Origin: Candidatus Hydrogenedentota bacterium
Lineage (GTDB): Bacteria; Hydrogenedentota; Hydrogenedentia; Hydrogenedentales; SLHB01
Length of the DNA stretch: 64,000 nucleotides
Reading direction: 5' to 3'
Assembly (NCBI GenBank): GCA_045863295.1
Contig: BTWA01000023.1
Span: forward strand, 35,519-99,518
In this document: positions 39,001 to 45,000 of the stretch, one piece after another
Layout: each line of letters opens with the position of its first letter
Numbering within the stretch: the stretch's first letter is position 1
Program-made: the position numbers

Positions 39001-42000
39001 AACGCGATTTCACCGTACACGCGGACGAAGGCGAGGCGCGGATTCGCTGGGACAGAAAACCGACCGCTACTTTCGATACGGTCAAATTCCGGATGCGGTG
39101 AGCGACGGCTACAGTGCATGCCCAGTATAATGCATTACTCCTCTTGATTACCATATCATGGCAGCTTGTGCGGCCTGATTTCCGCTGCCTGCCTGAGATT
39201 CGGTCGTGGATTTCATTGCTGTACGGCTAAACCAAATGATATCATGGTAGCCAGTTTCCGCACGCCCGACTCGGAAACCATTGTTGCCGAAGAACTTCAT
39301 CACATGGATCAGTTGCTTTCAACCGAAACCAGCGGCAGCCGGTAGGACGAAGAGATGATCAGACCCGAGAAGCTGCGAGCCACAGTGTACTCAGCTATTG
39401 TTACGGGATTTTTGACTTTGCTCATCGTAGTGGGTTCTCGAAACCTTGAGCATTTCGATGCACCGTTGGTGGCCTACACGTTCGCCACTCTTTTTGCGAC
39501 CTTTGGTATAACCTACCGGTATGCTATCTGGCTTCAACGGCCTCCGACCGCCGTTTTCTGGCGGCGAGGGTGGCAAGCCTTCTTGCAGCGCAATCATCGA
39601 TCATCCAACTTGAAACTATGGCTACAACGTGTTGGAGGGCAGTTTGCTCTCAATGATTTTATGTTCAAGCGCGGCGTGCTCCGCTGGCTCGCGCATATGC
39701 TCATCATGTGGGGATGCTTGCTCGCCGTAGCAATCACGTTTCCTCTCGTCTTCGGATGGATATATTTTGAGTCGTTGCCTGATCGGATAGATTGGTATCG
39801 TGTTGTGGTTTTCGGGTTCCCGACGGTTGCCATCCCCCACGATTCCTGGTTCGCGTTTCTGATTTTTCACGGGCTGGTGTGGGCTTCGTTGATGGTGATT
39901 CCTGGTGTCATGTTGGCTATGCGACGCCGCATGCGAGATGAGGGCGCAGCTGCACTTGAGACGTTTTCCGAGGATTTTCTTCCCTTAATTTTGCTCTTCG
40001 CCGTCAGTTTGAGCGGACTGCTGCTCACAGTTAGTTACACATGGCTCGAAGGATACGGCTACGATTTTCTCGCTTTGGCGCATGCGGTCACCGTGATTTT
40101 TACATTACTGTGGTTGCCCTTTGGAAAGTTTTTTCACGTTTTCCAGCGGCCCGCGCAACTAGGCGTCGAATTCTATAAGGACGTAGCGACGCGCGAACCA
40201 AGAGCGCGTTGCGCACGGTGCAACCACCCTTTTGCCTCCGAAATGCATGTACACGATCTGATTGAGACGGAAAGCGCTCTTGGATACCGTTACGATGTGG
40301 AAGACTGCGCGGCGTTGACTCATTACCAGTTCGTTTGCCCCCCATGTAGGCGGGTGATGTTCGCGCTCGCGCAGAGCCGAATCGCAGCAAGCGAATCGCA
40401 CATTTCCGGGTCTCTCCCTTTACCTCGGCCGGCCTATGCCAATCCTGGTCTATCCGAGGGCCCATTGGGTCGCGAAGACGCGGAAAACTTTCATCCTTAG
40501 GAGGTTCATGGATGGCCACCCATTCTGCACCGGACAACGCTAGAGCGAACCGTTTCGGTCCACACCCCTCTGTTTCCACAGGTATTCGTCTGGATGCAGG
40601 AGCCACCCCGGACAGTTTTGTAAACACGCATTGTTGTTTCTGTGGTCAACAGTGCGGCGTGACGCTGCTCGTTAAGAACAATCAGGTTATCGGTTTTGAG
40701 CCCCGGTACGACTTTCCTTTCAATCAAGGAAAGCTTTGTCCCAAGGGCGTAAAGCGTTACTTGCAAGGCGCCCATCCGGATCGGTTATTGCATGCCTATG
40801 CGAGAGATTCGCAAGCCGCAGGCGGGTTCAAGGCCATCGGCTACGATGAGGCCATCGCTCGTGTCGCCTCTGAAATCGAGCGTATCCAGCAAGCGTACGG
40901 TCCCGGCGGATTCGGCCTACTCAGCGGCGCCAGTCTCACCACGGAAAAAACCTACCTCATGGGGAAGTTTGCCCGGGTATGCCTAAAAACACCGTATATC
41001 GATTATAACGGCCGCCTCTGTATGGTGAGCGCAGCTGCGGGAAACAAGAAATCCTTTGGAATAGACCGTGCCGCGAATCCTTGGAGCGACATTCCCAAAG
41101 CCGAGGTGATTTGGATCAGCGGGGCGAACGTGGCCGAGTGTGCCCCCATAACCACTGACTATATCTGGCAAGCCCGTGAAGCAGGCGCGCGAATTATCAC
41201 GGTTGATCCACGCATAACACCAGCAGGCCGCATGAGCGATCTCTTTATGCCGATAAAGCCGGGGCGTGATGTTGCCTTATTCAATGGCATTCTTCAGCTG
41301 ATGATCGAGAATGACTGGCTGGATCACGATTTCATCAATACGCATACCGTGGGATTCGATGATGTCGCCGCTCATGTCCGTGAGTGGACTCCAACACGCA
41401 CGGCCGAAGTTACGGGCATCGCTGAAAAAGCTATTCGTGAGGCCGCGGAATGGTGGGGAACGGCTGCCACAAGTTTTCTCCTTCATGCACGCGGCATTGA
41501 GCATCACTCTCATGGCGTACAAAACTGCTTGGGCGCGATCAATATTGTTCTCGCCTCAGGCCGTATAGGCCGCGAGGGTTGTGGCTATGCGACTATCACG
41601 GGCCAAGCCAATGGGCAGGGTGGGCGCGAGCACGGCCAGAAGGCAGACCAACTTCCTGGCGGCCGCGATTTGGCCAATCCGGAACACAGAGCCCATGTAG
41701 CAGGCGTGTGGGGAGTCGAACCGGATTCTCTGCCGCAGCCCGGCGTCGACGCTTACGAGATGTTTCGTAAAATCGACACAGGCGAAATACGTGGCCTGCT
41801 GTCGATTTGTTTTAATCCCGCTGTGTCACTTCCCGACAATGCATTTGTGCACCGAGCGCTTGAGAAACTTGAGTTCTATGTTGCCATTGACTTTTTCTTG
41901 AGCGAGAGTGCTGCATTTGCGGATATCGTTCTACCTGGTTCCTTGCAGGAAGAAGATGAGGGTACCGTTACGAGCGCGGAAGGGCGTGTAATCAAGATTA

Positions 42001-45000
42001 ACCCCGCGGTCGAATGTCCAGGTGATGCCAAACAAGACTGGCGAATCATCCAGGACATTGCAAAAGCGCTGAAGCGTGACCGTGGATTCACGTTTGCTTC
42101 ACCGGAGGAGATACTGGACGAACTACGTGCGGCCTCGAAGGGCGGTGTGGCGGACTATTCTGGCATTACGTATGAAAAAATAGAGCGTAACAACGGGATC
42201 TTTTGGCCGTGCCCATCCGACGAGCACCCTGGTACTCCGCGCCTTTTCGAGCCTGATTCGTGGAACCCTGTATCCCAAGGCGCAGGGCCATTTTATTTTC
42301 CCGATGGTAAGGCACGATTCAACGTATCGACATACACGCCTCCGGCGGAAGTTACCGATGACGAGTATCCGCTCATGTTGACTACGGGGCGTGTGATAAG
42401 CCACTTTCTTTCCGGAACACAAACCCGCCGGATTGGCCCGCTTGTCGATCATTGCCCTGATCCCTTTATTGAAGTTCACCCTAGGCTTGCGAAGAAGCTG
42501 GGAATCGAGGACAAAGACTGGGTGACGGCAGAGTCTCGCCGAGGTTCCTGCATTCTACGGGCGAAAGTTGTGAATACGATACGACCGGATACAATATTTA
42601 TTCCGTATCACTGGCCTGGACGCAAGAGCGCCAATCAACTAACCGTTTCCGCTCAGGATCCAATCTCTAAAATACCCGAGTACAAGGTGTGCGCCGTGCG
42701 GTTGCGCAAAGCGTCATCGAGTGAAGCTGAACTCGCCGCCGGCGCCGAGCGAAAACTCTTGGAGAAATCCTAATGGCCGTCGCTGAGTCCCAAGAGTTTT
42801 TTGTTGACCAGAGCCGTTGTATTGGATGCAACGCTTGTGTACAAGCATGCTCTGAGTGTGATACGCACAAAGGCCAATCGATGATTCAACTCGACTATGT
42901 TGATCGAGCGACATCGACCCAAACGGCCCCCGTCGTGTGTATGCATTGCGATTCGCCGACCTGCGCGGAGGTTTGTCCAGCCGACGCCATCAAGCGCACG
43001 GAGGACGGTGTCGTTCAGTCAGCGCGAAAGCCCCGGTGTATAGCGTGCAACAATTGTGTGCTCGCATGCCCCTTCGGTGTTCCCAAGATGAATACCGGTA
43101 TGCATCTAATGATGAAGTGCGACATGTGCTATGATCGCACATCTACGGGTAAAAAGCCGATGTGCGCCTCTGTATGCCCAAGCCAGGCGCTCTTCTTCGG
43201 TACCCGCACGGAGATCGAACGCTTGCGGCCCAACTCGCGTCCTATCAATACTTTTCGATTCGGAAATCAAACCATTACCACAAAAGTGAATGTCCTTGTG
43301 CCCAGGCAAGCTTCACGCAACGACCTCGACGTGACTGCATCGCTAGGTGCGGCACCGTATGGGAATTCCATGGAGGATGACATGATGTTCGGCGCCATGA
43401 ACGAAGAGGAGGCCTCGACATGAAAGAAACGTCACACCCGGCCAAAGGAACTCCACCGGGACAAGGCGAGTCTTGCGCCCAGCCTGCATGGCGAGAACAG
43501 TTTCCGATCGATGTTCCAGACGATGAATATCGATCGCGGCGTGACTTCACAAAATTAGTCGGCCTCACGAGCCTCGCCTTCGTGGCAGGCCAAGGTTATA
43601 TCGTTGTTGAAAGCGAGCGGCAAAAAGTGCGCGGACGTTTACCGGAATTGGAAATCGCCGGGGCGAACGAACTTGCAGTGGGTTCTTCGAAACTGTTTCA
43701 CTACCCGGACAAAGGTGATGCATGTGTACTTGTTCGCGTTTCCGAAGATCGTCACCTCGCATATGGCCAGAAGTGCACGCATCTCTCGTGCCCGGTTATT
43801 CCGGCGCCATCGGAAGGCAAATTCCTTTGCCCGTGCCATCATGGCTATTTTGATCTCTTTACAGGCGAACCGCTCGCGGGACCACCAAGGCGTGCATTGC
43901 CCGCCATCGAACTTAGTTTCCGAGATGAAAAAATATTTGCCGTCGGCATAAAGGAACGATCCGCGTGAAACGCACTCACTTCTCACGAAGCCAACGCATG
44001 ACCATCGTGACGGCGATTCTTTGCATAGTCTCGCTTATCGTCATTTTGCAGTTATGGCTTCTTACCGCGACCATGGAAGCCTTTCTCGGCGGCAACCAAA
44101 AGATCGTAATTCCGGCGGCGATAGCTAGCGCTGGCTGCTTCTTATTGAATTTCGGATTGCTCCACTTCTATCTTCGTAAATTGGAGGAGTGATTTTCTGG
44201 TAATGCACGGAGTGGCCTTTGCGGCAGGCTTTGTGCGCGATCGCGCAGGCCAAGAATGTCTTGCCCAAGTCGGTAGGCCCGACGAAGTTGCGGTAGTCGT
44301 GACGCGATACCCAGCATCAATCGCCAGGGACAGCACGAGCGTCTTGTCGAGTCCGAGGGGATGGCAGAATTCGATGTCTTCGATGAAAGCTTCTTGCCGC
44401 TGTTATCGGCATCGAGACGATCCGGACTCTCTCCACTTCCCGCTGAACCAAGACAGTTCAAGTTCCGTGATAGAAGCAAGTGAACAGTTAATGTTCTCCA
44501 GAGAGTTGCCGAATCAGCTTTTGTAGCTGCGGACCGAATCGTTGTAGTTCGGCGAAATGTGCTTCACTCAATGCTTCCAGCAATCGCTCGCCTTCGCTCG
44601 CGAGGCGAATGTTCACCTCCCTTCGATCGTCGCTACCGGTCTGTCGTTCTACCCAACCCCCTGCCACCATCCTATCGACGAGCCCTACGGCGCTATGATG
44701 CTTAATACAGAGTCTCTCGGCTAATTCTCTGATGGTAACGCAATCCTTGTTGGGATAACCCTTGATTGCAAGTAGCGCCTGATGTTGGGGAGCGGTTAGA
44801 CCGACTTCCCTTGCACACTTCTCGCTAAATGCCAGGAAACGCCGTAGCGCGTGCCGGAACTCAGCAAGTTTTTCGTAATCGTCTTTAGTAATTTGATGTG
44901 TCACAGGGGCCCCAGCGTCGTTAATTTTTCCCACACTCATCTTGCGGGACGAACGGCTTGCATTATATCGCACTGCGATATATAATCTCTACGTTTTCCC

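Follow-up and report, generated by a model that had tools for sequence, protein, structure and literature searches.

A NasC-type molybdoenzyme encoded with a NarI-fold membrane anchor and a Rieske protein: a candidate membrane-bound quinol:nitrate oxidoreductase

A conserved five-gene operon of a Candidatus Hydrogenedentota bacterium probably specifies a quinol:nitrate oxidoreductase of five subunits, membrane-bound and with its active site in the cytoplasm, that would serve dissimilatory nitrate reduction when oxygen is low; we put the probability of this reading at roughly 0.63. In the best reading the complex would work like NarGHI from other parts, and we infer its quinol donor, haem content, sidedness and charge separation, along with the exact job of the Rieske protein. 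The window, that is, the whole stretch of DNA analysed, comprises 64,000 nucleotides of contig BTWA01000023.1, and the following features are given in its coordinates:

39355..40500, + strand: MEM, the membrane anchor, 381 aa, NarI-family fold of the three-His EMO/HdrE/QmoC type
40210..40347, + strand: four-Cys tail of MEM (C286/C289/C328/C331), recognised by fold match and hhalign
40512..42773, + strand: NasC-type Mo-bisPGD catalytic subunit, 753 aa
42773..43423, + strand: FES, four-cluster 4Fe-4S subunit of the DmsB/FdnH/HycB family, 216 aa, 17 Cys
43420..43968, + strand: Rieske 2Fe-2S protein of the respiratory type, 182 aa, with an N-terminal membrane anchor
43534..43554, + strand: Tat-like motif SRRDFTK, Rieske residues 39-45
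43965..44192, + strand: DUF6755 protein, 75 aa, two membrane helices, modelled as a clamp of the Rieske anchor helix
50445..51488, - strand: TDT/SLAC1 anion channel, candidate nitrate/nitrite channel, assigned by clade, 53% identical to the L048 copy
52021..57843, - strand: NO-response cluster of a cupin, a Ric di-iron repair protein, qNor, NnrS/DUF1858 and an Rrf2 regulator

The five ORFs lie on one strand between 39355 and 44192, as the first-pass annotation had it, with an 11-bp gap between MEM and the Mo subunit and overlapping stop and start codons thereafter. All five genes recur in the same order in 62 of 80 related loci, and 17 of the remaining 18 end at a contig edge; these 80 were taken as the nearest from a set of at least 567 loci, and hence the counts are biased and the relatives not independent. 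We conclude that the operon is real and intact, with a conserved order. A promoter and terminator scan stayed at chance level, five FNR/NsrR-like patterns had no exact match within the window, and the small share examined of two RNA runs gave only scattered short contigs.

In the proposed mechanism, (mena)quinol would give up its electrons on the outward-facing side of MEM, at an H243/H172 site capped by the head of the Tat-exported Rieske protein, and release its protons outside. The electrons would cross via a haem b held by H114/H261 to FES and then to the NasC-type Mo subunit, both of which would dock inside on a HycF-like Cys4 tail, with DUF6755 predicted to clamp the Rieske anchor onto MEM. 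A linked NarK or TDT channel would bring nitrate in and let nitrite out, the latter to be passed on to NrfA or NirK.

MEM has no Pfam match, and 6688 of the 8000 candidates scored are homologues, against 6655 counted earlier. Its structure model (pLDDT 90.1) is closest to NarI (Z 11.8, rmsd 4.7, 182 residues aligned) and EtfD (Z 11.6, rmsd 5.5, 227 aligned), with the next fold at Z 8.7; these two folds had already been placed above the rest, though Z values of 11-12 fall in a range that the fold-comparison tool treats as ambiguous for helical bundles. Among the profile comparisons, MEM matches E. coli NarI (E 0.0012), its relatives match PF02665 weakly, hhalign pairs it weakly with this genome's own NarI (probability 50, E 1.7e-4), and the weak QmoC/TcuB matches reported before recur at E 6e-5 to 3e-4. 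Foldseek with MEM returned nothing at E<=0.001, and the ESM Atlas search only clusters of MEM's own family.

Among representatives clustered at 50% identity, and counting at each column only those that align usably there, His is nearly universal at residues 114 (93/94), 243 (107/108) and 261 (105/106). The first-pass annotation had listed four invariant His; the fourth, residue 172, turns out to vary (His in 73 of 101, Asn in 25). The equivalent of NarI H66 is without His in the family (Ala 76, Ser 18, Gly 5; n = 100). At H114+14, Thr is found in 93 of 102 sequences; the corresponding residue is A101 in SaEMO and, in HdrE, a Ser for which a role as distal ligand has been proposed (10.64898/2026.08.18.745454). 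MEM thus displays the three-His pattern of EMO/HdrE as opposed to the four His of NarI, and H114, H243 and H261 are paired by spacing and fold, rather than by direct alignment, with SaEMO H87, H233 and H251 (10.64898/2026.08.18.745454). H114 and H261 are likely the ligands of a proximal haem b, and H243 would be the distal ligand. The distal haem itself is uncertain because the H66 position is without His, H172 is variable, and EtfD, which has one haem to the three of SaEMO, retains the H243 equivalent with no distal haem (10.64898/2026.08.18.745454). An equation of H172 with the NarI quinol residue K86 was rejected, since K86 aligns with residue 166 in an ungapped match. The database label 'MFS transporter' was also set aside: MEM has no MFS_1 domain, and the label on its relatives traces back to NarK-MEM fusions, the only members with an MFS domain. 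New relative to the first-pass annotation are the source of this name, the Tat-like anchor on the Rieske protein and the HycF-like Cys tail.

The four tail Cys, earlier described as invariant, are nearly so (72/74, 76/79, 64/65 and 67/70 for C286, C289, C328 and C331), and P0127 and P0136 retain the first only. The tail matches the C-terminal site of E. coli HycF both in fold (Z 6.1, rmsd 1.7 over 53 residues; next match 4.0) and by hhalign (E 2.6e-5, probability 75), and the whole-MEM profile returns HycF from the solved structures (E 0.0054). The tail sequence alone did not return HycF from these structures, and Foldseek with the tail alone gave nothing at E<=0.001. The sequence and model matches suggest that C286/C289/C328/C331 are homologous to the HycF metal site, which fits in place of a ferredoxin or rubredoxin, both of which we rejected. 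The single-metal site of HycF (C117/C120/C155/C158) touches HycB and FdhF (PMC9474812); hence, the resemblance would put both the Mo subunit and FES on the cytoplasmic side of the membrane, a placement also supported by the lack of a Tat motif on all 77 Mo ORFs.

The Mo subunit has one 4Fe-4S cluster (C41/44/48/76), and its Mo ligand, C170, has Met as the next residue ([13 protein letters not shown]). Its best family model is NasC (NF047855) at 797.6 bits, below the cut-off of 1100, as had been noted together with the site RLCMVSAA; NGRLCMVSA is present in 76 of 77 Mo ORFs. In a tree that has long reference branches, holds one sequence per reference lineage and leaves out B. subtilis NasC, 22 enzymes of the module fall into a single clade (100/99) within the NasC group (100/100), apart from formate dehydrogenases (100/99) and from NapA. 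The other members of this group adjoin nirB/nasB and nitrate transporters, and the nirB-linked NasC copies are ~42-47% identical to the Mo subunit. By sequence, then, it is of the NasC type. Formate dehydrogenases are its best solved sequence matches and had been the source of an earlier doubt, which is now resolved: the FdhF/FdsA identity is rejected on Met rather than His after the Mo ligand, on the motif GQ[AG]NGQGGREHG (here TGQANGQG, against RGQNNVQG in formate dehydrogenases) and on the separate clade. NapAB is rejected on the tree, on 261 of 931 bits for TIGR01706, on a Tat motif in 0 of 77 Mo ORFs and on the lack of a napB/napD partner, and a NarG-type catalytic subunit on 58.3 of 1084 bits for TIGR01580. 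FES, earlier called DmsB-like, is related to HycB (E 1.6e-19).

The Rieske protein has the cluster motifs CTHLSC and CPCHHGYF. Its R40 and R41 are invariant in 41 alignment rows, and tatC was found in this genome. A model of Rieske, MEM and DUF6755 scores 0.72 against 0.44 for the best of three controls; in benchmarks 116 of 157 solved pairs attain the mark for such scores, as do 2 of 215 mismatched ones, counts that apply only roughly here, where own alignments were used and haem was included but not scored. The runs share at least 79% of contacts, with a partner pLDDT of at least 77, and bring the Rieske cluster loops against outer-face residues 137-148, 162-171 and 227-240 of MEM. With MEM swapped out the Rieske score is still 0.44, indicating that part of the complex signal is the DUF6755 contact. 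The model thus sets the Rieske protein at the outer face with DUF6755 holding it, and the contact among the three proteins is a modelled one only. DUF6755 went undetected in the Brevibacillus locus and scores 25-28 bits or is missed in several distant loci; a literature search, with most subscription journals outside its coverage, found no paper on it.

We regard as unlikely a Rieske/cytochrome b device whose scaffold is the NarI/EMO fold and not the bc fold, in which quinol oxidised on the outside would be split two ways, the Tat-exported Rieske protein serving periplasmic nitrite, NO and N2O reductases and the haem chain the cytoplasmic NasC, possibly with a stacked twin haem on H243 by analogy to SaEMO. 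Rather unlikely, too, is that the same complex has its electrons split or entering at the Rieske protein, either by bifurcated quinol oxidation, with Rieske passing one share to a periplasmic cytochrome c and on to NrfA/NirK/Nor/NosZ while the haem chain takes the other, or from a periplasmic donor that would feed Rieske and drive nitrate reduction inside. Consistent with this are the respiratory type of the protein, with its disulfide Cys pair and its closest matches in the Thermus bc Rieske and AioB, the position of the cluster loops next to the outer haem site in the model, and the nrfA or nirK-like genes of 30 of 55 module genomes. However, no cytochrome c gene is among the recurring neighbours, the operon has neither cytochrome c nor a bc-type cytochrome b of the PEWY type, and all 63 Rieske proteins compared have Gly and Phe at the two positions that can raise the potential, which presumably makes for a low-potential cluster.

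That the module is an alternative assimilatory nitrate reductase, fed by the quinone pool or ferredoxin with no diaphorase, as PMC3475470 proposed for Bacillus bataviensis, is in our view improbable. Its nearest outside relatives are indeed assimilatory NasC proteins beside nirB, NrfA could supply ammonium as well, and among the 55 module genomes, mostly MAGs of unknown completeness, NirB is found in 13 and some sirohaem reductase in 35, with none in 20. Against this, NirB/NasB/sirohaem genes occur in 0 of 80 flanks, and the neighbours are instead oxygen- and NO-response genes: Ric/Crp-Fnr/Rrf2 genes lie in 20 of 55 flanks, and the gene types of the NO-response cluster also flank the module elsewhere. 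Moreover, neither NirB nor NirA was found in this genome (G000, 96% complete), its sole sirohaem-type candidate being a CysI-like protein beside cysH; it has no assimilatory nitrite reductase, and encodes NrfA and qNor. Across the same 55 genomes, again mostly MAGs, narG is found in eight, napA in three and neither in 45; 23 of the 30 with nrfA or nirK-like genes are without narG/napA. In a sample of one phylum, 27 of 251 genomes carry the module.

Nitrate as the substrate of the proposed quinol:nitrate oxidoreductase is supported by the genomic linkage to transporters. Seven loci are fused, and the NarK-MEM fusions P0121 and P0166 match TIGR00886 at E 2e-69 and 9e-69; NarK (22) or TDT (32) is fused or at most 2 kb away in 54 of 55 loci with sufficient flank. 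The Deinococcus operons have a transporter on each side, both labelled NarK/NasA in one record. Cultured carriers of the module include Herpetosiphon sp. NSE202 and Deinococcus wulumuqiensis, with Neobacillus bataviensis a probable one. The TDT gene of this genome lies 6 kb from the module, and its clade follows the module in other genomes and also follows narGHJI operons. At this locus itself, points against the best reading are that NarG and an NXR-like enzyme are already present in the genome, that NarK was not found in it and that no transporter lies within 2 kb.

The missing NarK would also suit an AioBA-like arrangement in which the Rieske Tat signal carries the Mo subunit and FES across the membrane to give a periplasm-facing enzyme, as would the xRR[DE][FLYV] motif in 61 of 63 Rieske proteins but none on the Mo subunit, and AioB among the top Rieske matches; the transporter linkage, the cytoplasmic character of the HycF-like docking tail and the occupation of the Rieske cluster face by MEM in the model make it very unlikely. 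Just as doubtful is that the Mo subunit works on a compound other than nitrate or in the reverse sense (chlorate, selenate, tellurite, nitrite oxidation or formate), an idea to which the score under the NasC cut-off, the formate dehydrogenase matches and a TDT family name taken from tellurite and dicarboxylates might point, in the face of Cys-Met instead of Cys/Sec-His, the clade apart from formate dehydrogenases, the NarK fusions and the TDT clade shared with narGHJI operons. The original proposal of a membrane-linked, diaphorase-free NasC-type module is upheld by the tree, the NarK fusions, the transporter linkage, the flanks free of NirB/NasB and the complex model.

Standard gene surveys file narG and napA under dissimilatory nitrate reduction and nasA/nasC under assimilation. 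Were the module respiratory, an enzyme usually labelled 'assimilatory' would instead be wired into the respiratory membrane; nitrogen-cycle inventories would then misplace many members of the Acidobacteriota, Planctomycetota, Chloroflexota, Myxococcota and other groups, and many soil and water bacteria may respire nitrate unseen by such surveys. The split-quinol device on the NarI/EMO fold, should it be real, would add a fourth architectural class to the prokaryotic nitrate reductases and, in the 45 of 55 genomes with neither narG nor napA, the sole respiratory type found. Our observations also offer a testable function for DUF6755 and for the mislabelled 'MFS transporter' family, suggest TDT/SLAC1 proteins as bacterial nitrate/nitrite channels, and point to reuse of the HycF metal site as a Mo-enzyme dock.

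Set beside E. coli NarGHI (PDB 1Q16), the module has an anchor of like fold (Z 11.8), with H56/H187/H205 answering to H114/H243/H261, and has in common with it a four-cluster subunit, a linked nitrate transporter (NarK) and an inferred cytoplasmic Mo site. In contrast, its catalytic subunit is of the Cys-ligated NasC type, NarJ is absent, and Rieske, DUF6755 and the Cys4 tail are added; MEM has no His at the H66 position and departs from the four His (two bis-His haems) of NarI, H172 being variable and on another helix. With the Bacillus/actinobacterial NasC (NF047855) the Mo subunit shares its clade, motifs (Rx[14 protein letters not shown]) and lack of a signal peptide, whereas the module brings membrane partners, and its operon encodes neither the NasB diaphorase nor NirB. 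A Tat-bearing Rieske protein is encoded alongside a Mo enzyme in AioBA arsenite oxidase and haloarchaeal pNar as well; Aio has no amino-acid ligand to Mo and no anchor of the MEM fold, and pNar combines NarG with a bc-type cytochrome b. With the EMO/EtfD, HdrE and QmoC anchors (PDB 9OJN), MEM shares three conserved His, the last two spaced 18 residues, and differs in its six helices with an outer beta-hairpin, its lack of CCG/ferredoxin domains and its Mo enzyme partner. The FdhF-HycB-HycF arm of formate hydrogenlyase (PDB 7Z0T), as described in PMC9474812, parallels the module in the Cys quartet, the HycB-like FES and the FdhF-fold Mo subunit, although here the tail sits on a cytochrome b-type anchor and not on a NuoI-like ferredoxin, and no hydrogenase belongs to the module. 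Within the coverage of the literature search, which excluded most subscription journals, the only mention of the module was PMC3475470; this paper describes, in Bacillus bataviensis, a short NasC (729 aa) linked to iron-sulfur and Rieske genes apart from nirBD, called 'alternative assimilatory' in 2012 without experiment, and in the section consulted a membrane anchor, a Tat motif and DUF6755 go unmentioned. The Brevibacillus locus, with a 724 aa Mo subunit, FES and Rieske, resembles this cluster, which is probably the Bacillus form of the module.

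The five genes of the module run head to tail along the + strand, from 39355 to 44192 of the window; their ends overlap or nearly touch, and ribosome-binding-like sites are present. ORF positions and family searches of the window upheld the linkage and families claimed in the first-pass annotation: in order, a first ORF without a Pfam match (the membrane anchor, MEM), a molybdopterin oxidoreductase (the Mo subunit), a four-cluster 4Fe-4S subunit (FES), a Rieske protein and DUF6755. We propose, with a probability of about 0.6, that these constitute a quinol:nitrate oxidoreductase with its active site inside and a NarGHI-like redox loop. 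Quinol would be oxidised on the outer side, at a site where the Rieske protein acts as a partner, and electrons would pass from haem b through FES to the Mo centre and on to nitrate inside.

Among 8000 candidates scored, 6688 are MEM homologues, and 1402 representatives remain at 50% identity (E≤0.001). A genome scan confirmed at least 567 of 590 pattern matches; in the best 80 of these, taken as the loci set, 62 loci carry the complete module in the same gene order, 17 are cut off by the end of their contig, and in the remaining locus (L088) the Mo frame is broken and DUF6755 falls below the threshold used. Module genes are spread over several frames in the L056, L065, L069, L088 and L138 assemblies, which may reflect frameshift or sequencing error. 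Record titles include Acidobacteriota, Planctomycetota, Chloroflexota, Gemmatimonadota, Myxococcota, Verrucomicrobiota and others, along with Deinococcus and Brevibacillus. The distribution is patchy: DUF6755 occurs in 5 of 135 genomes of the window's phylum and in none of the 14 control genomes, and 27 of the 251 genomes in G141's phylum carry MEM. The G141 locus (L026) is titled Heliobacteriaceae, yet its module is like that of Blastocatellia records; there, a hemerythrin gene sits between the Rieske and DUF6755 genes.

The MEM model (pLDDT 90.1) shows six long helices plus a beta-hairpin on the outer side, and the previously noted NarI/EtfD fold holds as a match that is moderate for a helical bundle (NarI Z 11.8, EtfD Z 11.6, next 8.7). 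The supposed invariance of H172 does not: with rows gapped or poorly aligned locally dropped column by column, this position is His in 73 of 101 MEM representatives and Asn in 25, whereas H114 (93/94), H243 (107/108) and H261 (105/106) are kept. These three fall on H56, H187 and H205 of E. coli NarI, which, like H66, are haem ligands there; H66 falls on A124 of MEM. H114/H243/H261 is the three-His pattern of the EMO/HdrE anchors. In the portions of the sources covered, H87/H251 of that pattern bind the proximal haem and a single H233 marks the distal site, empty in EtfD but filled by a stacked twin haem in SaEMO (10.64898/2026.08.18.745454; PMC13083937). T128 of MEM (93/102) stands at H114+14, the spacing at which SaEMO has A101 and HdrE a Ser. 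Given the three-His pattern, the varying H172 and T128, MEM likely binds a proximal haem, and its distal site may be absent, bis-His with H172, or a twin.

Folded alone, the Cys tail of MEM (pLDDT 91.6) best matches E. coli HycF among 48161 chains (Z 6.1, rmsd 1.7, 53 residues; next 4.0), with C286/C289/C328/C331 on HycF C117/C120/C155/C158. According to the text covered, the HycF quartet forms a single-metal site, and the C-terminal extension in which it lies touches HycB and points towards FdhF (PMC9474812). This likeness, the relationship of FES to HycB (E 1.6e-19) and the FdhF fold of NasC together make it most likely that the tail serves as a dock for FES and the Mo subunit at the cytoplasmic face.

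All 63 Rieske proteins carry disulfide-type motifs, with Gly and Phe at both positions where the residue is linked to a raised potential; the nearest solved relatives are the Thermus bc Rieske and AioB. The pattern xRR[DE][FLYV], which follows the Tat consensus, precedes the Rieske anchor in 61 of 63, and tatC was found in G000, the genome holding the window. A predicted complex of MEM, DUF6755, Rieske and two haems passed, scoring 0.72 versus 0.44 for the best control. Of solved pairs, 116 of 157 reach the pass mark, and of mismatched pairs 2 of 215, figures that apply only roughly here; contact agreement was at least 79% and partner pLDDT at least 77. In this model the DUF6755 hairpin receives the Rieske anchor helix, and cluster loops 120-128, 138-142 and 153-159 share the interface with outer-face residues of MEM around H172/H243. 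Since the control still scored 0.44, DUF6755 supplies part of the score. The same contact could be read as bifurcation, or as entry from an outside donor, through the Rieske protein, which we consider unlikely.

Transport genes accompany the proposed quinol:nitrate oxidoreductase. NarK or a TDT/SLAC1 channel lies within 2 kb in 54 of the 55 complete loci with enough flank (NarK in 22, seven of them fused; TDT/SLAC1 in 32). A whole or partial NarK-family domain is joined to MEM in P0121, P0166, P0203, P0219 and P0123 (TIGR00886, E 2e-69 to 9e-8), and such fusions are the likely source of the database label 'MFS transporter' on MEM. TDT genes of the module-type clade also stand after narGHJI in L042 and after the nar operon in G000, where NarK was not found (best E 1.7e-7), and the TDT channel is therefore a candidate nitrate/nitrite route; plant SLAC1/SLAH proteins are nitrate channels. 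The window's copy is an exception, with MarR and ClC genes following it and a TDT gene 6 kb off:

44488-46885, MarR regulator (- strand) and ClC channel with CBS domains (+ strand), directly 3' of the operon
50445-57843, - strand, NO-response cluster: TDT channel, cupin, Ric, qNor, NnrS/DUF1858, Rrf2
58612-63615, - strand, mobile-element-like genes

The same ClC type recurs near five related loci, and the Brevibacillus module has a NarK-like MFS gene and a Crp/Fnr gene as neighbours. A formate/nitrite (FNT) channel adjoining a distant module copy (L137:4786-5604) is a third transporter type. The mobile-element-like genes may bear on the acquisition route of the region; among them are an ATPase of 821 aa, which weakly matches a type IV coupling protein (E 7e-5), and a 345-aa ORF that is primase-like by eye.

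NirB, NasB and sirohaem genes were absent from 1.2 Mb of flanks of the 80 loci, and Ric, Crp/Fnr or Rrf2 appeared in the flanks in 20 of 55 cases. The 55 module genomes examined comprise G000, four others from its phylum and 50 from the set of 80 loci, picked for longer flanks; completeness is known for five. Among the 55, a sirohaem reductase of any kind occurs in 35 and NirB in 13, NrfA in 20, a NirK-like protein in 15, NarG in 8 and NapA in 3. G000 itself encodes a CysI-like protein beside cysH, NrfA, qNor, NarGH and an NXR-like enzyme, the last two sets lying at L102:

C39:37231-46829, - strand, nar operon: cytochrome c, narG, narH, narJ-like, NarI::Rieske fusion, cytochrome b6-like, small haem protein
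C39:47979-56381, + strand, NXR-like type II DMSO reductase, Tat-exported, 1149 aa

The NarI::Rieske fusion has 439 aa, and a TDT channel follows this operon in place of narK. The NXR-like set, divergent from it, includes haem-binding gamma-like and 4Fe-4S beta subunits; a similar set adjoins the module in L041. The NrfA of G000 (C10:94865-96295) has five CxxCH and lacks the CxxCK motif. A low-oxygen, dissimilatory role fits the module better than assimilation. Alternative assimilation, the role given in the text covered to a B. bataviensis cluster of a short nasC, an FeS gene and a Rieske gene (PMC3475470) that is probably of the same family, is distinctly improbable.

The Mo subunit of the proposed nitrate reductase scores highest with the NasC model (797.6 bits, cut-off 1100), followed by Fdh-alpha (569, cut-off 666), and its closest solved structures are formate dehydrogenases. 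The active-site motif decides for the NasC type: NGRLCMVSA, with the Cys-Met site noted earlier, is present in 76 of 77 Mo ORFs, whereas the Fdh references have Cys-His, with RGQNNVQG in two of three. TGQ[AG]NGQGGREHG occurs in 56 of the 77, the 21 without a pattern match including some truncated ORFs. In a 34-row tree with long reference branches, the 22 module enzymes form a single clade (100/99), nested in a 100/100 group with five further enzymes, four of them annotated and each adjoining a nirB or nirB-like gene and a transporter; Fdh (100/99) and NapA/NasA fall outside, and the NasC-like assignment is borne out. A Tat motif stands upstream of the first Cys motif in 0 of 77 Mo ORFs (a few ORF starts having been called short). 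Export by hitch-hiking is very improbable, as is another substrate.

The module is absent from the text covered of PMC10100899, PMC12342949 and PMC5900883, the last of which describes acidobacteria reducing nitrate with 'nasA' genes only; a dedicated study was not found in literature outside subscription journals and supplements. New here are the correction of H172, the three-His EMO/HdrE reading of MEM, the HycF match of the Cys tail, the Rieske-DUF6755-MEM model and the genome counts. The module belongs to none of Nar, Nap, classical Nas, Fdh or the bc complexes, and we propose that it works like NarGHI-NarK.
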